IMG/VR virus record: IMGVR_UViG_3300045988_067702
Coordinates: 1-6,319 of that record
Strand: one strand, 5' to 3'
DNA from: a virus
DNA: 6,319 bases
Below the pieces are notes generated by a model. That model saw nothing but the letters and a program-made list of their open reading frames with translations, searched no databases and was not told where the DNA came from. Below are positions 56-6,319 of this stretch, piece by piece; the first letter of the stretch is position 1, and each line of letters opens with the position of its first letter. A program made the position numbers and the translations under genes.

Positions 56-991
56 TCAGCTTCTTTTGATTCTGGTCTTCCAGTTGTTTCTCGTAAGGGT
101 TCTTCTTCTACCATTGGTAGTCTTGGTTGGTCTAACGGTGCTACTGGTGGTCAACTTGTCCATTCTCACGTTATTAACCAAGATTCTCTTTCTATGTCAA
201 TCTTATCTCTTCGTCAGGCTTACGCTGCCCAGAAATATAAGGAGATTCAGTTGGCAAATGATGTTGATTTTGCGTCTCAGATTGAGGCTCATTTTGGTGT
301 TAAGCCTAAACACGCTGATGATACATCCTATTTTATTGGTGGTTCTTCTTCTATGATTGATATTAACCCTATTGTTAACCAGAACCTTTCTGGTGACGGT
401 CAAGCTGATTTTAAAGCTTCTCCTATTGGTAACGGTTCGTCTAAGATTAAGTTTACTGCTGATACTTACGGTGTTGTTATGGGTATTTATCGTTGTACAC
501 CTATATTGGATTACGCTCACATCGGTATTGACCGTACTCTTTGCAAGACTGATGCTTCCGATTTCGTCATCCCAGAAATGGATAGTATCGGTATGCAACA
601 GAATTATCTTTTTGAAGTTCAAGCACCTTCTTTTGATCGTGTAAAGGTTGGCTTCGTTAATGACGAAAATTTTGTTAAGTCATACGGTTATGCTCCTCGA
701 TATTCTGAGTACAAGACTAATTACGATAAATATAACGGTGATTTTTGCTTTACTCTGGATTCTTGGGTAACTGGTCTTCCTGCTGATATGATCGATGAGA
801 TTTGTCGTCGCAATCTATCTTCTATGCAGATAGCTCCAGAACTCTTTAACTGCCGACCATCTTTATGTAATAGTATCTTTGTCAATCAGAATAACTATCT
901 TGTTTCTGATGATAAACTTTACATTGGAATGGTTAATATGGCTTATGTTACTCGTAACCTTAGTCGTTACGGTCTTCCTTATTCTAATTAG
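1..991 (+). CDS. VP1: Major capsid protein, C-terminal part (continuation of 5369..6264). Position 1 is the third base of a split codon, the in-window frame starts at 2, and the stop TAG is at 989..991.
   Basis: The frame containing track ORF 194..991 is open back to position 2 (PSKSVSTRSDGDAWHINGSASFDSGLPVVSRKG...SMSILSLRQAYAAQKYKEIQ...). It is in phase with 5369 through the 55-nt overlap. The LRxAxAxQKxxEI-like segment and the C-terminal ...RYGLPYSN are typical of microvirus capsid proteins as I recall them. Confidence 0.9.
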   Translation, partial: PSKSVSTRSDGDAWHINGSASFDSGLPVVSRKGSSSTIGSLGWSNGATGGQLVHSHVINQDSLSMSILSLRQAYAAQKYKEIQLANDVDFASQIEAHFGVKPKHADDTSYFIGGSSSMIDINPIVNQNLSGDGQADFKASPIGNGSSKIKFTADTYGVVMGIYRCTPILDYAHIGIDRTLCKTDASDFVIPEMDSIGMQQNYLFEVQAPSFDRVKVGFVNDENFVKSYGYAPRYSEYKTNYDKYNGDFCFTLDSWVTGLPADMIDEICRRNLSSMQIAPELFNCRPSLCNSIFVNQNNYLVSDDKLYIGMVNMAYVTRNLSRYGLPYSN

Positions 992-1006
992 TTAAATTTG
1001 TTTATT

Positions 1007-1459
1007 ATGAGTATTAGAAATTATAAAACAAAGTGTTATGTGCCTCCCGTTGGCGAGGATTTGCAGCATGATTTTTTTGATGATGGTGTTTCTATCCATT
1101 CTGATGTTACGTTGTTAAATAGATTGTCCGATATGCGACTTTCTCAGTCTCTTATGGATGGTATTTTGTCACGATTTACTCAGATTAAGGATGATATGCC
1201 AAATGAGATTAGGGATAAGTTTTCCGCTCTTGATGATTTTGATAAAATGGAATTTACTGATTCTCGTTATTTGCAGTCTCTTTCTGATAAGAAATCTGCT
1301 TTGTCTTCATTTATTGATGATTTTGATAAGAAGGTTTTAGAAATGAAGGATTCTGAGGAAAAGTCGAAGCTTGCTTCTGCTCGTAAGAATTTGGATAATT
1401 ATATTTTGTCTATGTTCTCTGGTGAGTCTTCTTCTGATGATGAGTCTTCCTCTGATTAA
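1007..1459 (+). CDS. 150-aa acidic hypothetical protein, possibly an internal scaffolding (VP3-like) protein.
   Basis: Track ORF 998..1459 starts at TTG. The in-frame ATG at 1007 in an ATTATG context is the more likely start. Codon usage matches the other genes. It lies between the capsid and pilot genes, is Asp/Glu/Ser-rich with the tail SGESSSDDESSSD, and ends in a double stop TAATAA. I recognise no family motif, so the function is a guess from size, charge and position. Confidence 0.7.
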   Translation: MSIRNYKTKCYVPPVGEDLQHDFFDDGVSIHSDVTLLNRLSDMRLSQSLMDGILSRFTQIKDDMPNEIRDKFSALDDFDKMEFTDSRYLQSLSDKKSALSSFIDDFDKKVLEMKDSEEKSKLASARKNLDNYILSMFSGESSSDDESSSD

Positions 1460-1467
1460 TAATTTAT

Positions 1468-1492
1468 GCCCCCTTTTTAGGGGGCTTTGTTT
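1468..1492 (+). terminator. Intrinsic-terminator-like hairpin between the 150-aa gene and VP2.
   Basis: gccccc(1468..1473)-ttttta-gggggc(1480..1485) forms a perfect 6-bp GC stem followed by tttgttt (1486..1492), starting 9 nt after the stop codon. Confidence 0.5.
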
Positions 1493-1510
1493 AATTTAAA
1501 TTTGTCGTAT

Positions 1511-2530
1511 ATGTCTGCTACTATTGGTGCTGCCGCTATCACTGCTGGTGCTGGTCTTTTAGGTTCTTTGTTTGGTTCTAAAAAGCAGGATAAAAATGCC
1601 CAAGCGCAACGTGATTGGCAGGAGAAAATGTATCTTATGGATAGAGAATATAATACTGCTGCAAATCAGCGTAAGCGTTTTGAAGAAGCAGGTCTCAATC
1701 CTAATTTGATGATGAATGGTTCTGCTGGTTCTGTTTCTGGTTCTATTCCATCCACATCTATGTCCAATTCTGGTGAAACTTTGTCACAAGGTATTAGTTC
1801 TGCAGGTTCATCTGCTGCCCAGATGATTGCTCAGCAGATGGATATTAATGCTCAAAAGAATGTTCGTGATGCCGAGACTCGTAAAGCTGATGAAGAAGCT
1901 GACTATACTGGTCAGATGACAGAAGCGCAACGTATGCAAAATATGTATCTTTTACAGACTTTGCAGGCTAAGACAAAAAATCTTCAGCTTAGGAATGTTT
2001 ATCAAGAGCTCGAAAATAAATACGCACAAGATTCTTTGGATGCTCGTGTAGATTTGGTTAATGCTCAAAACCAATCTCTTGCTAATCGTGCTTATCTCGA
2101 TGCAATGAATGCTGCCCTTGCTGATACTCAGAACCGTATTTCTAAGGTTAATTTGTCTTGGCTTCCTGCTGAAAAACAAGCAGGTTTAGCAAATGTTATT
2201 GCTCAGTCCGCTTTATTTGCTGCTCAACGTGGAATGGCTGCTGCAGCTGCTCGTATGTACGTTTCGTCTGCTGCTCTTAATTATGCTAATGAGTCTGGTA
2301 TTAAGATAGATAATGATTTCAGAAAAGCTACTCAGCAATTATCTATTGATGCAACAAATGATTCTAGTCGCTGGACTCAGCAGAAGTATGAAGATACTCA
2401 AAGTCCTGCTAATAAGCTTTGGCGTTGGCTTGGTATTGATGGTTCTTGGTTACCTGCTGCTGGTGCTTATGCTTTTGGTAAATCTACCAAAGTTATGCAT
2501 GCTCCTAAAAAAGTTAAAGGTTTCCATTAG
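1511..2530 (+). CDS. VP2: DNA pilot / minor capsid protein (Microviridae VP2 / H-like), 339 aa.
   Basis: Track ORF 1487..2530 starts at TTG. The in-frame ATG at 1511 is the likely start. The N-terminus is a Gly/Ala-rich hydrophobic helix (MSATIGAAAITAGAGLLGSLFG). It is followed by QRDWQEKMYLMDREYNTAANQRKRFEEAGLNPNLMM, which matches the conserved pilot-protein block (...NTAxQRxxxxxAGLNPxL...) as I remember it, then by long Ala/Gln-rich helical segments. Confidence 0.85.
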   Translation: MSATIGAAAITAGAGLLGSLFGSKKQDKNAQAQRDWQEKMYLMDREYNTAANQRKRFEEAGLNPNLMMNGSAGSVSGSIPSTSMSNSGETLSQGISSAGSSAAQMIAQQMDINAQKNVRDAETRKADEEADYTGQMTEAQRMQNMYLLQTLQAKTKNLQLRNVYQELENKYAQDSLDARVDLVNAQNQSLANRAYLDAMNAALADTQNRISKVNLSWLPAEKQAGLANVIAQSALFAAQRGMAAAAARMYVSSAALNYANESGIKIDNDFRKATQQLSIDATNDSSRWTQQKYEDTQSPANKLWRWLGIDGSWLPAAGAYAFGKSTKVMHAPKKVKGFH

Positions 2531-2680
2531 TAAAATGACTTTATAATCCATTTTTGGTATGTCATTTACTATTATATATTTATGCGTGTGTATTTTTTAT
2601 ATATATTTATATATAGATTTACGCACGTATTTTTTTATCTTATTTCATTCTGCTTCTGTTTTCCCGATTCTAGCATACAC

Positions 2681-2710
2681 TCATTAGTTATTATTAGTTA
2701 TCATTAGTTA
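2681..2710. repeat. Three tandem 10-bp repeats (iteron-like): tcattagtta / ttattagtta / tcattagtta.
   Basis: Read directly. The period is exactly 10 nt. A fourth 9/10 copy, tcattagcta, lies at 2948..2957 on the far side of the hairpin island. Confidence 0.85.
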
Positions 2711-2712
2711 TT

Positions 2713-2720
2713 TACTTTTG
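2713..2720 (+). promoter_or_regulatory. Exact match to the Bacteroides-type -7 promoter element TAnnTTTG (tacttttg), just upstream of the hairpin island.
   Basis: The motif match was read directly. No TTTG (-33 element) sits at the expected spacing upstream, and such 8-mers occur by chance in T-rich DNA. Confidence 0.2.
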
Positions 2721-2725
2721 TGCTT

Positions 2726-2935
2726 CGGTCGTGAACGGTTCGAAGAACCCGACCGCTTATCATCTCAAAGTCTCCCGTAAGGCTGTGATACCATGAAAAA
2801 CACTAGCCTTTCGGTTCCTTTGGGCAATGCCAAAGGAACTGGGGTTTGGGGCAACGCCCCATAAGACAGGAAACGTAGTTTCCGCTCCTTCCGCTTCCGG
2901 ATGACCGGAAGTGGGGTTATAGGGGCAACGCCCCT
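2726..2935 (+). other. GC-rich array of seven consecutive stem-loops. It could be a structured ssDNA element such as a complementary-strand origin, or a structured ncRNA. Function is unknown.
   Basis: The seven hairpins are: H1 2726..2755 (cggtcg/cgaccg enclosing ggttc-GAA-gaacc); H2 2779..2810 (aaggct+gtg / cac+agcctt); H3 2814..2839 (10-bp stem gttcctttgg/ccaaaggaac); H4 2848..2860 (ggggc-AAC-gcccc); H5 2869..2883 (ggaaac-GTA-gtttcc); H6 2891..2914 (ccgcttccgg-ATGA-ccggaagtgg, one G.T); H7 2921..2935 (aggggc-AAC-gcccct). My hand count gives 118/220 G+C for 2721..2940. The track shows no ORF of 60 aa or more on either strand. Confidence 0.8.
2758..2772. repeat. 15-bp direct repeat tatcatctcaaagtc, left copy (its partner is at 2956..2970).
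   Basis: Exact 15/15 identity read directly. Together with the 10-mer tcattagYta it forms a 23-nt unit. That unit is intact at 2948..2970 and split on the left side by 2711..2757. Confidence 0.9.
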
Positions 2936-2955
2936 AATCGCCTGCTATCATTAGC

Positions 2956-2970
2956 TATCATCTCAAAGTC
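2956..2970. repeat. 15-bp direct repeat tatcatctcaaagtc, right copy.
   Basis: Exact identity with 2758..2772. The two copies bracket hairpins H2 to H7. Confidence 0.9.
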
Positions 2971-2972
2971 CT

Positions 2973-2988
2973 TATCTTATATAAGATA
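2973..2988. repeat. Perfect 16-bp palindrome tatcttatataagata.
   Basis: It equals its own reverse complement, checked by hand. It starts 3 nt after the right 15-bp repeat. Confidence 0.85.
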
Positions 2989-2994
2989 TTACGA

Positions 2995-3019
2995 AATCGG
3001 TGTTTACTTTCCACCGATT
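2995..3019 (+). other. Stem-loop with an 8-bp stem (aatcggtg / caccgatt) and a 9-nt loop.
   Basis: Read directly: 2995..3002 pairs with 3012..3019. Confidence 0.6.
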
Positions 3020-3162
3020 CAGTCTCTTCTAGTTTATCTACTGTTAAAGTGACACCGACTTAATAAGGTTCGCTTGCTAGGTACGTTCTACTGTATTCGT
3101 ATCAGTTTCTTTATGTCGGTGATAATTTATGCACTTTAATCGTTTCCTATTCATAGATAGCA

Positions 3163-3174
3163 TTTCACGTGAAA
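3163..3174. repeat. Perfect 12-bp palindrome tttcacgtgaaa (CACGTG core).
   Basis: It equals its own reverse complement, checked by hand. Confidence 0.8.
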
Positions 3175-3197
3175 CATTGTAAAAGTAAACTAATATT

Positions 3198-3225
3198 TGT
3201 TAATATAACGTCCCTTATGTTATAA
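3198..3225 (+). other. dif-like 28-mer tgttaatataa-cgtccc-ttatgttataa, a candidate Xer recombination / attP site.
   Basis: Compared by eye with E. coli dif GGTGCGCATAA-TGTATA-TTATGTTAAAT. The right arm matches 9/11, including TTATGTTA. The left arm matches 6/11, including the terminal ATAA. The ATAA-N6-TTAT geometry is kept. The AT-rich context makes a chance match plausible. Confidence 0.25.
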
Positions 3226-3307
3226 CGTATCTATTTTTTTTGTAATATTGCACTCGAAATCAGTTGCTTTATGTTTCTGGTATCTTTAATGTTTAATTTA
3301 AATTGTT

Positions 3308-3559
3308 ATGATTATGGAAAAGGTTATTTCTGATTCTGAGCGGTCTCAATTCTTTAATAATGAATTGCGTGACTATTTTAAGGTTATTGTAACCTCTAAT
3401 GTCTTGGGTGATGTTTATACTACTCATTATGCTGTCCGTACTGATGAAGTTTCTTCTTTTATGGATTCAGTGTATGATACTTATGGTAATGATGCGGTTA
3501 TTCAGTTTAATGGTATCTTTCAGCAGAAAGATACTCGCTTCTGGTTCACTATGGTTTAA
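3308..3559 (+). CDS. Hypothetical protein, 83 aa (81 aa if it starts at ATG 3314).
   Basis: It is the first ORF after the noncoding region. Its NNT-biased codon usage matches the structural genes. The second ATG at 3314 sits in the recurrent tgATTATG context. I recognise no motif. Confidence 0.6.
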   Translation: MIMEKVISDSERSQFFNNELRDYFKVIVTSNVLGDVYTTHYAVRTDEVSSFMDSVYDTYGNDAVIQFNGIFQQKDTRFWFTMV

Positions 3560-3663: not shown

Positions 3664-3864
3664 ATGAAAAAAGAAGTTATCAAGATTATTATTAAGGTGC
3701 TTATTTATGCTCTTAGTTTGATTGGCATTTATTTTGGTGTTTCAGCTATGACTAGTTGCACTGTTCAGCGTCAGTTTGACTCTTTTGGTAAAGGTACGAT
3801 TATCGTATCCGATACTACATATATTTCTCATTCTGGTTCTTGGTTTTTTAAACATGTTCGGTGA
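3664..3864 (+). CDS. Small predicted lipoprotein, 66-aa precursor with a mature part of about 35 aa.
   Basis: MKKEVIKIIIKVLIYALSLIGIYFGVSAMTSC has a Lys-rich n-region, an uncharged h-region and a lipobox-like A-M-T-S-C with Cys32. This fits the PROSITE-style lipoprotein rule as I recall it. Its TGA stop (3862..3864) is 2 nt before the Rep ATG, which suggests translational coupling. Confidence 0.65.
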   Translation: MKKEVIKIIIKVLIYALSLIGIYFGVSAMTSCTVQRQFDSFGKGTIIVSDTTYISHSGSWFFKHVR

Positions 3865-3866
3865 TT

Positions 3867-5357
3867 ATGAATAACGTGACTCCTTGGGTTTCTTGTTTTA
3901 AGCCCGTAAGTATTAGAGATTGTTTTGGTCGTGTTCAGATGGTTGGCTGCGGTTCTTGTCCTGCTTGTCAGGAACTTAAACGTAATAGCTTGAGTAACCG
4001 TCTTGCTCTTGAGGAGCAAAGGTCAGAGTTTTGTTCTTTCGTTACTTTGACTTATGACGAAACTCATTTGCCTATTGTGGATGTTTCTCGTTTATTTTCT
4101 GCTTCTGATGGTGAGGTTGTTAATTTGCAGCAGAATCATGATTTTAACGAAGATTTTTCTACACCTACTGTCGTTAATACTGAAGAGTTACGTAATAGTG
4201 TGATTTTATACAATAAACATCGTTCTTTTTATAAAGCTAATTTTTCGGTTAATAGAAATGTTACTTATGAAAATAATCAAGTTGCGGTGCTTGTAAATAG
4301 GCATTTGCAGTTATTTATTAAAAGATTTAGAAAATATGTCTCAAAAAATTACAATGAAAAGATACGTTACTACGCTATCGGCGAGTATGGTACGCAGTCG
4401 TTGCGTCCGCATTGGCATATCTTATTTTTCTACTCATCGTCTCAGCTTGCCCGAGATTTTGAAAATGTCCTGCAGTTTGGTACAGAGTCCCGACCTATTC
4501 AAACCCCTGTTTTTTTACGTTCGCTCTGGAAGTTCGGTCACATTGATTCTAAACAGACCGACGGAAAAGCCTATTTTTACGTTTCGTCGTATGTTAATAA
4601 GCCTGCTGATTTTCCCTATGTGCTTGAACTCCTTGCTCCTCCACGTTCGTTTCACTCCAATTATCTTGGAGAGGTTTCTTCGAAAGAAGACATTAAAAAA
4701 TCTTTTCAAGAAAGAAACTTTGAACATATCGGACAAGTTAATGTTATCTCTTGGTCTGGTGAGCAGTATACTTACTCCGTTAGGAGGTCGCTTGTCGGTC
4801 GATTGCTACCACGATATAGCTTCTCAGCTTGCGAGGATGACAGAATTATATTTCGAAAACTTACGCTCTTTGCCGACAATTTCGTTAAATCCAGATATGA
4901 GCAATTAGGTTCTGTTCTTAATTTAGCTACTCATATTTTTAATGCTTGGTATTTTAATAAAGATAATGAATATGCTTCACTTGCTTCCTTATGCGCTCCT
5001 CAGTGTCTGGCTTGTTTGCATTCGGATTTAAATATATTATCTCCGTTATGTTCTGTTTTGTACGCTTCTAAACGTTTTGTTTCCGCTGCCGATTCTTTAG
5101 GTTTCGGTTTGCGTGATTATTTTGATATTTACAAGTCTTATTATCGATGGCTTGATTACTCTCGCTTAGTTGATAATTTATCATTGTGTGAATTGGATTC
5201 GCATTTTGCTTCTGCATATTACGATTCTATTATTGACTTTGATACTTTTTCTGCTACATCTATAGATTTTATGAATTGGTCTAAATCTGTTAAAAATCAG
5301 TTCTGTTCACGGATTAAGCATAGACAGATTGCAGACCGTTATAAGTTTAATATTTAA
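3867..5357 (+). CDS. VP4: Rolling-circle replication initiator, HUH endonuclease superfamily (Microviridae VP4 / phiX174 gene A-like), 496 aa.
   Basis: Motif I is FVTLTY (4038..4055). Motif II (HUH) is RPHWHILFF, with H-W-H at 4410..4418. Motif III is the double-Tyr YVSSYVNK (4578..4601), compared with phiX174 A protein YVAKYVNK. There is an N-terminal Cys cluster C-x8-C-x2-C-x2-C (3921..3968). The track starts the ORF at GTG 3861, but ATG 3867 in the tgATTATG context is preferred. Confidence 0.9.
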   Translation: MNNVTPWVSCFKPVSIRDCFGRVQMVGCGSCPACQELKRNSLSNRLALEEQRSEFCSFVTLTYDETHLPIVDVSRLFSASDGEVVNLQQNHDFNEDFSTPTVVNTEELRNSVILYNKHRSFYKANFSVNRNVTYENNQVAVLVNRHLQLFIKRFRKYVSKNYNEKIRYYAIGEYGTQSLRPHWHILFFYSSSQLARDFENVLQFGTESRPIQTPVFLRSLWKFGHIDSKQTDGKAYFYVSSYVNKPADFPYVLELLAPPRSFHSNYLGEVSSKEDIKKSFQERNFEHIGQVNVISWSGEQYTYSVRRSLVGRLLPRYSFSACEDDRIIFRKLTLFADNFVKSRYEQLGSVLNLATHIFNAWYFNKDNEYASLASLCAPQCLACLHSDLNILSPLCSVLYASKRFVSAADSLGFGLRDYFDIYKSYYRWLDYSRLVDNLSLCELDSHFASAYYDSIIDFDTFSATSIDFMNWSKSVKNQFCSRIKHRQIADRYKFNI

Positions 5358-5368
5358 TTATTTTTTTT

Positions 5369-6319
5369 ATGGCAAATCGTTCCGATATTATGGGTTTGCA
5401 TGGTTTGAAAAACAAGCCGTCTCGAAACTCTTTTGACGTTTCAGCCCGCAATTTGTTCACCGCCAAAATCGGTGAACTTCTTCCTTGCGCCGTTTACGAA
5501 ATGAACCCAGGTGATTCAATTCGTATTGATGCAAGTTATTTTACTAGAACTGCACCTTTGCAGACTGCTGCTTTTACTCGCCTTCGTGAGAATGTTCAGT
5601 TCTTTTTTGTTCCTTATTCTCAACTTTGGAAGTATTTCAATACTCAGGTTTTGAATATGACTACTTCGGCCTCTGGGCAAGATGCTTCACGCATTGCTAC
5701 CTCTCCTTTTGCTAACGAAAAGGTTACAACAGGTATGCCTTATGTTGCTTATTCTGCCTTGCACAAATATTTGTACAAGATGGGTCAAGCTGCTAAGTCT
5801 AAATTTACTAAAGGTGATTTTTCTGACAAATTTAAAAATTCTGTTTTTGATAATAACGGTGAATATCGTTGGTCTGCATCCTCTAAGCTTCTTCAGCTTC
5901 TCGGTTACGGTCGTTTTGATTATCAAAATATGTCTTTTGAAGATTTTGCAGATAGTTCTGTGATAGGTATGACTCATCTTCCTAATGTGTCTGTCTTCCG
6001 TCTTCTTGCTTACCATAAGATTTGTAATGACCATTATCAGTTCCGTCAGTGGCAGGGATATGATGCATCTTTATGTAATGTCGATTATGTTACTCCATCT
6101 GGTTCTATGGATTTGTCTACTCAGCTTGAGCAGGTTAACTTCGATTCTGGTAAGAATGCCGACCGTTTGAATTTCTTGGATTTACGCTTCAGCAATCTTC
6201 CTTTGGATTATTTGAATGGTGTTTTGCCTTCTGCTCAATTTGGTTCTGAGTCTGTTGTATCTTTACCATCTAAATCTGTTTCGACAAGATCTGATGGTGA
6301 TGCTTGGCATATTAATGGA
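5369..6319 (+). CDS. VP1: Major capsid protein (Microviridae VP1 / F family), N-terminal part. It continues across the circular junction into 1..991. The full gene is join(5369..6264,1..991), 628 aa.
   Basis: ATG at 5369 is the first start after an in-frame TAA at 5348..5350, 11 nt after the Rep stop. My hand translation found no stop to the window end: MANRSDIMGLHGLKNKPSRNSFDVSARNLFTAKIGELLPCAVYEMNPGDSIRIDASYFTRTAPLQTAAFTRLRENVQFFFVPYSQLW... This block resembles the conserved N-terminal jelly-roll strands of microvirus capsid proteins. The gene is not in the ORF track because it has no stop inside the window. Confidence 0.9.
   Translation, partial: MANRSDIMGLHGLKNKPSRNSFDVSARNLFTAKIGELLPCAVYEMNPGDSIRIDASYFTRTAPLQTAAFTRLRENVQFFFVPYSQLWKYFNTQVLNMTTSASGQDASRIATSPFANEKVTTGMPYVAYSALHKYLYKMGQAAKSKFTKGDFSDKFKNSVFDNNGEYRWSASSKLLQLLGYGRFDYQNMSFEDFADSSVIGMTHLPNVSVFRLLAYHKICNDHYQFRQWQGYDASLCNVDYVTPSGSMDLSTQLEQVNFDSGKNADRLNFLDLRFSNLPLDYLNGVLPSAQFGSESVVSLPSKSVSTRSDGDAWHING
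6265..6319. repeat. Terminal redundancy, copy 2, identical to 1..55 (circular assembly overlap).
   Basis: Exact 55/55 identity with the window start, read by eye. Confidence 0.95.

Follow-up and report, generated by a model that had tools for sequence, protein, structure and literature searches.

Locus and fold of the hairpin array

Here we analyse a row of closely packed hairpins in the noncoding DNA between the VP2 and Rep genes of a virus from the IMG/VR collection (record IMGVR_UViG_3300045988_067702). The stretch examined, referred to below as the window (6319 nt), is a complete-looking microvirus genome in which all open reading frames (ORFs) lie on the plus strand, as follows.

194-991, plus strand: major capsid protein, C-terminal part (Pfam Phage_F); the N-terminal part runs off the window end
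998-1459, plus strand: ORF for a scaffold-like protein
1487-2530, plus strand: ORF for VP2, pilot-like
3308-3559 and 3664-3864, plus strand: ORFs for two small proteins
3861-5357, plus strand: Rep (Pfam REP_ORF2-G2P)

The VP2 stop and the next ORF are ~780 nt apart, and no ORF of at least 40 aa overlaps positions 2708-3292 on either strand. Within this gap G+C climbs to 50%, from ~25-35%, across an array of GC-rich hairpins set in an otherwise AT-rich genome. A preliminary description of the sequence had placed seven back-to-back hairpins (H1 to H7) here; the array as we now resolve it comprises the following modules.

2726-2755, plus strand: H1, a 6-bp outer stem, a 5-nt asymmetric bulge (TGAAC) and a 5-bp inner stem with a c-GAA-g triloop
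2756-2772, plus strand: spacer CTTATCATCTCAAAGTC, conserved and unpaired, with a second copy at 2956-2970 (direct repeat D5)
2775-2782, plus strand: mini-hairpin CCGTAAGG (B in what follows), of the d(GCGNNAGC) type, with 2 bp, a sheared G.A pair and a 2-nt loop
2783-2808, plus strand: unpaired stretch CTGTGATACCATGAAAAACACTAGCC, the most conserved sequence of the element
2779-2810, plus strand: H2 of the preliminary description, with a 13-nt loop, overlapping the mini-hairpin and the unpaired stretch
2813-2840, plus strand: H3, a 10-11-bp stem with loop GCAATG
2841-2867, plus strand: X1 module GGGGTTTGGGGCAACGCCCCATAAGAC, which holds H4 (2847-2861) and is a paralogue of X2
2869-2883, plus strand: H5, GGAAAC-GTA-GTTTCC, a c-GNA-g triloop hairpin
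2891-2914, plus strand: H6, folding in the window as a 10-bp stem that contains one G.T pair and carries an ATGA loop
2913-2942, plus strand: X2 module GGGGTTATAGGGGCAACGCCCCTAATCGCC, which holds H7 (2920-2936)

The same seven local hairpins are returned by DNA and RNA folds of positions 2716-2945. The folding excess that had been proposed as a check is present: measured against 200 dinucleotide shuffles, none of which folded as well, the array reaches z = -6.26 as DNA, -4.23 as plus-strand RNA and -4.44 as minus-strand RNA. When 230-nt scanning windows were compared genome-wide with DNA parameters, the array was the most extreme (z -6.3 against a genome median of -1.3), and the five best windows all begin between 2416 and 2876, in late VP2 and the VP2-Rep noncoding region; the entire intergenic region has z = -8.7 as DNA and -6.4 as RNA. 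Two further places are moderately structured in the same scan, at ~5406-5635 (z -3.1) and, wrapping around the ends, at 6211-121 (z -3.5). Fine details of the first reading also stand, including the c-GNA-g triloops TCGAAGA (2740-2746) and ACGTAGT (2873-2879), the AAC loops of H4 and H7 and the G.T pair of H6. H2 fares less well, as its stem (AAGGCT/AGCCTT) can fold in the window but is not conserved (67% paired, with no compensatory change, in 38 relatives), and the extent of ~210 nt was an underestimate for an element that is bigger, modular and horizontally exchanged. A G-quadruplex formed by four G4 tracts (GGGGTTTGGGG, GGGGTTATAGGGG) was considered and rejected, the tracts not being conserved.

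Conservation and covariation of the modules

Relatives were gathered by exact-pattern scans of IMG/VR, 185,579 species genomes and metagenomes (89 loci); individual contigs are given L numbers below, and the combined collection holds 121 distinct element sequences. Three samples are used in what follows: an aligned core set of 38 sequences, a loop census of 43 elements, and ten arrays with the window's architecture (A2). In A2, the 46 pairs of 8 helices are 98.9% paired, with 16 pairs changed on both sides, a level reached by none of 500 shuffles and compared with only 35-55% pairing in register-shifted controls. Compensatory changes back six of the seven hairpins, all but H2, and the structure of the array is real and under selection.

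All 10 scored pairs of H1 are 100% paired in A2 and 7 are compensated; hairpins of the same shape and different sequence occupy its place in L034, L038, L125 and L130. Relatives show GAA, GTA or GCA in the H1 loop (GAC in one duplicated copy of L021), and those that bear H1 keep the spacer CTTATCATCTCAAAGTC. In place of H2, what is conserved is a mini-hairpin of the form (C/G)CG-NN-AG(G/C) followed by the unpaired stretch. Its outer pair is 100% paired in the 38 aligned sequences (CG 22, GC 14, GU 1) and is C..G in 78 and G..C in 31 of the distinct elements (109/121), never mismatched, while both loop bases vary freely. H3 is 98% paired over 11 pairs in the 38 sequences, 7 of them compensated, around an invariant GCAATG loop. 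In A2, H4 is 95% paired with 2 compensatory pairs, H5 is 100% paired with a GC to AU compensation and a GTA or GCA loop in relatives, the 8 scored pairs of H6 are 100% paired with 2 compensated, and H7 is 100% paired. Other relatives carry very different sequences at the position of H6, and the X2 stem is longer in relatives with covarying sequence (e.g. GGGGGCAC..GTGCCCCC and GGGGACGG..CCGTCCCC).

The unpaired stretch is a candidate recognition or primer-template site. An invariant run of 19 columns in the 38 sequences comprises ATGAAAAACACTAGCCT (2793-2809) and position 2811, together with AC at 2790-2791; it reaches 1-3 nt beyond 2783-2808 and overlaps the 16-mer search pattern. Parts of the unpaired stretch and of the loop of H3 were required by the scan patterns, which accounts for some of their invariance. 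In a set retrieved by a different motif, only two of the microvirus contigs holding that position lack an intact ATGAAAAACAC.

The modules themselves vary between genomes through gain, loss, duplication, swapping and reordering. For example, X1 and X2 are near-duplicates in L125, and arrays of the L042 type possess CAGGTTATAGGGC and lack X1. In addition, the H1-plus-spacer unit is tandemly duplicated in L021, and in the window's clade a 15-nt direct repeat, TATCATCTCAAAGTC (2758-2772 and 2956-2970), brackets the block from the mini-hairpin to X2; both may be footprints of recombination.

Distribution and exchange between distant phages

In all microvirus contigs the array follows VP2 or accessory minus-strand ORFs, precedes the small ORFs and Rep, and lies on the gene strand. 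Within the viral collection, every contig that carries the 16-mer ATGAAAAACACTAGCC is 4-16 kb long, and the species-genome scan yielded one matching contig of a metagenome-assembled genome among 185,579. A blastn search of 50,697 phage records matched only gut microviruses and found no alignable G4, St-1 or alpha3 origin, the GenBank phage matches being short pieces of the array in the unannotated DNA of five microviruses from pig faeces.

In genomes whose VP1 and Rep share just 24-64% identity with those of the window, the element core matches at 71-88%, and one figure does not predict the other. The clearest cases are L113 and L130, whose H4-H7 segments (103 nt) are 94-96% identical to the window's, although VP1 is 28.6% identical in both, the Rep of L113 is 25% identical and L130 has no Rep match; such DNA identity amid distant proteins indicates recent exchange of H4-H7.

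A second kind of carrier was identified in three ~10-kb human-gut metagenome contigs (L066, L086 and L089), which possess an H1-like hairpin, the mini-hairpin, the conserved stretch, H3 and X1, and score 74-81 bits with the covariance model. None of the three has microvirus genes, and their similarity to microviruses is confined to ~100 nt of the array. They encode a 496-aa Obscuriviridae-like initiator (PHROG 'replication initiation protein'), 24% identical to those of Cellulophaga phages phi12:2 and phi18:4, as well as SSB, a peptidase M15, an Ig-domain structural protein with a DUF6266-like N-terminus and a tyrosine integrase. The two Cellulophaga phages are Obscuriviridae, and phi18:4 is a single-stranded DNA (ssDNA) phage (PMC11946311); the ~10-kb carriers are presumed to be ssDNA phages as well. 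The contigs break off inside a more extensive hairpin region, which contains GCGAAGC and GCGTAGC mini-hairpins along with similar iterons; the canonical mini-hairpins are one-stranded (7, 5 and 2 against 0, 1 and 0 in the three contigs) and the coding parts symmetric. Noncoding DNA of ~1 kb or more in these contigs is rich in GCGAAGC-type mini-hairpins. Together, these comparisons show that the block behaves as an interchangeable cassette between distant genomes.

Several apparent further occurrences were rejected. Array-bearing 'mini-genomes' that lack Rep (L005, L056 and similar) look like fragments, the contigs checked being 3.7-5.2 kb long and without terminal repeats. The X2 motif GGGTTATAGGGG..CCCCTAAT occurs in contigs of large double-stranded DNA (dsDNA) phages (L010, L022, L024, L032 and others) as a short hairpin only; the B+H3 covariance model had no match in these contigs, and by our own estimate ~4 chance matches to the X2 motif are expected. 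In the jumbo-phage contigs among them, L010, L024 (295 kb), L022 (284 kb) and L032 (198 kb), GGGGTTATAGGGGT..ACCCCTAATCGCGCTTTTGCGCGAAAAA is repeated ~3.5 kb apart within longer repeated units that share only the X2-like hairpin and have no Rfam match. Similarity to plasmid single-strand origins (sso) was sought in PLSDB, where only NZ_CP050055.1 matched, itself a microvirus. This entry (L152, 6313 bp) stands in RefSeq as 'Pseudomonas aeruginosa strain LIUYANG-A plasmid unnamed2'; relative to the window, its proteins show 90-94% and its array 95% identity, and the entry probably reflects contamination or a mis-assigned replicon.

The accessory minus-strand ORFs (~80-100 aa by eye) occur in the VP2-Rep region of some relatives, at ~2560-3130 in L002, ~3050-3300 in L003, ~80-340 in L004 and ~4020-4290 in L059, with flanking hairpin terminators and a minus-strand promoter box, TACCTTTG. 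The VP2-Rep intergenic region is a hot spot for such accessory cargo.

Folded DNA or structured RNA

The preliminary description had taken the triloops to favour function in the packaged plus-strand ssDNA. Comparative loop data strengthen that argument and weaken the alternative of a structured RNA. Among the 43 elements of the census, c-GN(N)A-g hairpins with a stem of at least 3 bp number 121 on the plus strand and 7 on the minus strand, against 9.5 +/- 3.1 in shuffles, so that C:G-closed GNA and GNNA loops are 17 times commoner on the plus strand. The plus-strand loops comprise 73 GNA, 42 GNYA and only 6 of the RNA-typical GNRA form; substitutions are free at the variable loop positions and spare the G, the A and the closing pair. 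Stems of 3 bp covary around both the GNA loops (CGC/GCG, CAC/GTG, GCC/GGC) and the GGYA loops (CTC/GAG, GTC/GAC, GCC/GGC). These loops obey the rule published for the DNA mini-hairpins d(GCGNAGC) and d(GCGNNAGC); as DNA, GNA-loop heptamers of the form d(GCGNAGC) are stable with any N and have melting temperatures of 70-76 C, compared with 39 C for r(GCGAAAGC) (PMC13037366). Because the RNA counterpart melts so much lower, covarying stems of 2-3 bp make sense as DNA and hardly as RNA.

Under the structured RNA alternative, the array would be transcribed, either as a 3' untranslated region of VP2 reached by read-through or as a separate small RNA, and would serve as an mRNA 3'-end stabiliser or terminator region or as a trans-acting noncoding RNA (ncRNA). 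In its favour, the RNA fold is also significant (z -4.2), and RNAalifold gives the same helices with a possible long-range pairing of TAGCCTT (2804-2810) and GGGGTTA (2913-2919), which needs G.U pairs and is kept by the two substitutions of L062. We rejected this long-range helix, as both sides are near-invariant and show no compensatory change, and L004, L011 and L015 do not compensate. X2 (UAUAGG..CCUAAU) loosely resembles the 11-nt tetraloop receptor, and an ncRNA gene may face either way, as the array does in the ~10-kb phage contigs.

The instability expected of the short stems as RNA (PMC13037366) and the near absence of GNRA loops, which make up 6 of 121, speak against an RNA. In the Rfam scan that the preliminary description had suggested, the array matched no family, with the window searched at E up to 1; at the gathering threshold four relatives had no match, nothing relevant appeared across the 10 loci scanned, and ARAGORN found neither tRNA nor tmRNA. 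The transcriptional context points the same way, owing to the following feature.

2582-2636, plus strand: terminator-like hairpin and T-run downstream of the VP2 stop, with an 11-bp stem in the RNA fold and 9-11 bp in DNA folds

This hairpin forms the 5' edge of the structured region. In 29 of 43 loci an equivalent hairpin with a T-rich tail comes immediately 5' of the array, and no conserved promoter was found between the two. None of H1 to H7 is itself followed by a T-run on the plus strand, as an intrinsic terminator would be. A Bacteroidota-type -7 box, TACTTTTG (2712-2719), precedes H1 and was considered as the promoter of an ncRNA, but it is poorly kept in relatives: present in L062, it is lost in L031 (94% Rep identity), L021 (86%), L026 and L027, and because it is lost in such close relatives we treat it as chance. 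The conserved box of this type (TAnnTTTG) lies several hundred nt further downstream, before the small ORFs. Furthermore, the gain, loss, duplication and reordering of modules between genomes are unlike a single fixed RNA fold and better suit a row of independent DNA hairpins. On balance, we regard a structured RNA as fairly improbable.

Comparison with known priming signals

The primase-dependent complementary-strand origins of G4, St-1, phiK and alpha3 (Bullavirinae) are likewise intergenic hairpin clusters in packaged microvirus ssDNA. They carry the same GCGNNAGC-type mini-hairpins, with a conserved unpaired stretch beside the hairpin, and the GCGTTAGC of St-1 and alpha3 recurs as an 8-mer in L021 and L034 (PMC13037366). 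The array contains GCGNNAGC or GCGNAGC-type mini-hairpins, but beyond the 8-mer there is no homology; it has 7 to >12 hairpins where G4-type origins have 3, lies between VP2 and Rep rather than between F and G, and presumably serves a Bacteroidota host. G4-type origins have a conserved 5'-CTG-3' primase start just 3' of hairpin I; none was found in the array, as the CTG that follows the mini-hairpin in the window (2783-2785) is not conserved and only the CTA inside CACTAGCC is invariant. Since sequence homology and a conserved CTG are both lacking, we do not claim that the array belongs to the G4 family proper.

Plasmid sso elements (ssoA, ssoU, ssoT and ssoW) and the ssiA and ssiB sites of RSF1010 are structured, noncoding, orientation-specific segments of 150-300 nt at which host enzymes prime the lagging strand, and sso elements are cassettes common to otherwise unrelated replicons. 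The array resembles them in being noncoding, highly structured, confined to one strand relative to the microvirus genes, asymmetric in its loops (121:7) and a cassette common to otherwise unrelated replicons. Mini-hairpin motifs occur in the complementary-strand origins of G4, St-1 and alpha3 (GCGTTAGC) and in RSF1010 ssiA, as CCGAAGG in the latter case, and a tandem mini-hairpin DNA fragment was bound poorly by SSB (PMC13037366). The array differs from plasmid sso in its carrier, a phage, and showed no sequence similarity to them in the PLSDB search. TAGCCT agrees with the CS-6 motif (TAGCGT) at 5 of 6 positions, perhaps by chance.

In the minus origin of Ff phages (M13, f1 and fd), adjacent intergenic hairpins on ssDNA are read by the host polymerase for the primer, the hairpins mimicking sigma-70 -35 and -10 boxes. 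The array too is a set of adjacent hairpins in a region with other cis signals, but its loops and architecture differ, and unlike the sigma-70 mimicry of Ff no Bacteroidota-type box (TTTG or TAnnTTTG) was found in its stems. The conserved hairpins of the metagenomic reekeekee- and roodoodoo-microviruses lie between Cap and Rep or just upstream of Rep and show compensatory substitutions and a conserved loop; a role as complementary-strand origin has been suggested for them but not verified (PMC9865509). Those are 1-2 simple, clade-specific hairpins of 13-64 nt (PMC9865509), in contrast to the multi-module mini-hairpin array described here, which is exchanged among distant genomes and with a second phage family.

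A candidate complementary-strand origin

The hairpins are strand-specific and of DNA type, lie outside transcription units, outlast protein identity, address no particular Rep, and are found in two kinds of presumed ssDNA phage, from which we infer a signal directed at the host and carried by ssDNA. Because the only obligatory host-directed function of the single strand is the start of its complement, we propose that the array is a cis-acting replication signal of folded ssDNA, most probably a complementary-strand origin of G4-like or sso-like kind, an assignment in which our confidence is about even. This role, already raised in the preliminary description, is the one that best fits the observed structure, strand specificity, DNA-type loops, position, conservation and exchange, and it stands as a proposal.

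Under this proposal, host SSB would coat the injected genome and leave the array hairpins free; many of these have hyper-stable GNA or GNNA loops as caps, and together they surround a single conserved unpaired stretch. A host primase (DnaG-type) or RNA polymerase would then recognise this scaffold, clear of SSB, along with the exposed stretch at 2783-2808 between the mini-hairpin and H3, and would lay an RNA primer for the complementary strand, thereby giving rise to the replicative form. Exclusion of SSB, the identity of the priming enzyme and the start site are the conjectural parts of this scheme. Since the block would address host machinery and not phage proteins, it could be interchangeable in the way that sso are among plasmids. 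A bolder version, which we consider unlikely, holds that the array is a free-standing, folded-DNA plug-in origin that moves among unrelated ssDNA phage families of gut Bacteroidota and captures a host factor purely by DNA structure; such a module could also be a decoy against ssDNA defences or a semi-selfish passenger of ssDNA genomes.

Several observations weigh against a complementary-strand origin. The core covariance model has no match in the cultured Bacteroides fragilis microvirus phiHBP1, nor in L059 and L060, the closest GenBank genomes by VP1 (~50% identity), so that the element is widespread without being universal; the array is also absent from MT836516.1, a relative of the ~10-kb phage contigs, and all of these array-less phages must prime differently. 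On the ~10-kb contigs themselves, all genes run on the strand opposite to the array's. Plus-strand ssDNA and a sense transcript are identical in sequence, so neither covariation nor strand asymmetry can separate DNA from RNA; it is loop chemistry and the predicted terminator that argue for DNA. The sequences compared are related and partly retrieved by pattern, which inflates invariance in the pattern columns and leaves the stems unaffected. Finally, the conserved unpaired stretch and nearby iterons could instead constitute a nick site for Rep.

Flanking elements and alternative roles

Further elements flank the array and bear on alternative roles.

2681-2712, plus strand: 10-nt iteron-like direct repeats of TCATTAGTTA type, three copies (repeat families D1 and D7), on the 5' side
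2945-2971, plus strand: iteron-like repeats and the second spacer copy (repeat families D1 and D5), on the 3' side
2995-3134, plus strand: second structured domain, with a hairpin at 2995-3019 and a stem pairing 3050-3063 with 3111-3124 (repeat I3, folds)
3163-3174, extending to ~3195, no strand assigned: palindromic box TTTCACGTGAAA (CATTTCACGTGAAACATTGTAAAAGTAA), outside the array
3198-3225, no strand assigned: dif-like attP, TGTTAATATAA-CGTCCC-TTATGTTATAA, outside the array

The second domain has homologous modules in relatives, and in other genomes it exceeds 300 nt with hairpins of 30-40 bp. It carries the motifs ..CTTCTAG..AAAGTGACACC, with the conserved form ..CTTGTYC/CTTCTAG..AAAGTGACAC, and its long-range stem is compensated in L021, where CCGAC/GTCGG becomes CCATTC/GAATGG. 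Of 58 array-bearing genomes, 49 carry the palindromic box. It precedes the dif-like site by ~25-45 nt and could be a plus-strand origin, an operator or an accessory site for Xer.

About 12 metagenome matches lie in contigs of 17-128 kb, most of which look like integrated prophages, with the order attL, small ORFs, Rep, VP1, VP3, VP2, array, attR. Comparison of L114 with L050 places the prophage junction where the spacer borders on the rest of the corresponding dif-like site (..CATAATACCGGTTA|), consistent with the Xer/dif integration proposed for Bacteroidetes microviruses (PMC3091885), and one host site is occupied by two different phages. In four IMG/VR entries, L030 (7.2 kb), L040 (7.8 kb), L037 and L044, the sequence past the dif-like site matches the flanks of the L129 and L137 prophages; these entries are prophage fragments and not circular genomes.

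The array might therefore act as folded ssDNA in some other capacity, such as organisation or condensation of the genome in the capsid, a signal to end or package the displaced strand, a decoy for host ssDNA-sensing defences or nucleases, or an accessory of Xer at the dif-like site. The strand-specific DNA-type hairpins support these roles equally, the array sits beside the dif-like attP (260 nt downstream) at the attR end of prophages, and it is accessory, occurring in only part of the clade. We know of no precedent for them in Microviridae, and the conserved unpaired sequence suggests specific recognition rather than bulk structure. For the one dif-bearing gokushovirus tested, integration depended on host XerC and on an undamaged dif-motif in the phage (complementation of xerD was not achieved) and is drawn as following dsDNA formation (PMC7062461), requirements that weigh against an Xer accessory role; L004, in addition, has a partial array with neither the TTTCACGTGAAA box nor a dif-like site in the stretch read. 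Taken as a group, these roles appear improbable.

Repeats of 10-11 nt resembling iterons flank the array in the window (2681-2712 and 2945-2960) as TTATCATTAG, (C)GCCNGTTATC and CTGGTATCAT, and repeats similar to those on the 5' side follow the array in most relatives. They also occur in L009, L021, L026-L034 and L066, which include genomes with unrelated Reps and Obscuriviridae-like contigs. Such repeats raise the alternative of a plus-strand origin, in which an HUH Rep would nick the unpaired stretch between the hairpins and be bound by the iterons, in the manner of CRESS-DNA viruses (circular, Rep-encoding, single-stranded) and rolling-circle plasmids. The invariant 19-nt run does lie unpaired between hairpins, iteron-like repeats stand on both sides of the array upstream of rep, and a phiX-type origin sequence occurs nowhere else in the genome (the phiX174-type core ACTTGATATTAATAAC gave 0 genome matches with up to 3 mismatches). 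Yet the same sequence accompanies Reps only 24-35% identical and a phage with another initiator family, is absent from relatives with a homologous Rep, and is flanked by iterons common to genomes with unrelated Reps (L009 Rep 26% identity). A nick site would also leave the hyper-stable mini-hairpins unexplained, and the conserved TTTCACGTGAAA box, another candidate, is nearer rep. A plus-strand origin thus seems distinctly improbable to us.

A selfish, non-autonomous mobile element without phage function that inserts into ssDNA, like the palindrome-associated elements (PATE) of IS200/IS605 or the repetitive extragenic palindromes and their mosaics (REP/BIME), with which the array shares clusters of GC-rich imperfect palindromes in intergenic DNA, is very improbable: GC-rich hairpins in an AT-rich genome, the 15-nt direct repeats flanking the B-to-X2 block of the window, and near-identical copies in very different genomes and a second phage family would suit it, but the 16-mer and the B+H3 pattern occur only in microvirus-size contigs, prophages and ~10-kb phage contigs, with the single match among 185,579 genomes and no dispersal in host chromosomes (a distribution on which we rule out REP/PATE-type elements), position and orientation are constant, no RAYT gene is associated, the flanking repeat is not general, and internal conservation and covariation indicate selection for function.

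Implications

The kind of element described here is already known, as covarying hairpins upstream of Rep have been reported in other microvirus clades (PMC9865509). The multi-module cassette, its mini-hairpin signature, and its exchange among distant microviruses and with a second phage family appear to be new: we did not find them described in papers on Bacteroidetes microvirus prophages, gokushovirus resurrection and phiHBP1, in virus structured-RNA catalogues or in a 2026 preprint on intergenic features.

Textbook knowledge of complementary-strand priming comes entirely from phiX174, G4 and Ff in E. coli. The array provides a concrete, sequence-defined candidate for the start of the complementary strand in non-enterobacterial microviruses, including abundant lineages associated with gut Bacteroidota, with testable parts in the pairs that close the mini-hairpins, the invariant unpaired sequence inside 2783-2808 and the loop of H3. 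In addition, the rule established for d(GCGNAGC) and d(GCGNNAGC) mini-hairpins appears to be under natural selection in the array, which lends it comparative support. The element may help with the design of synthetic or resurrected gut microviruses and with the annotation of the large 'empty' regions between their genes, and it offers an example of a noncoding module traded between very distant ssDNA phages, much as sso are among plasmids.

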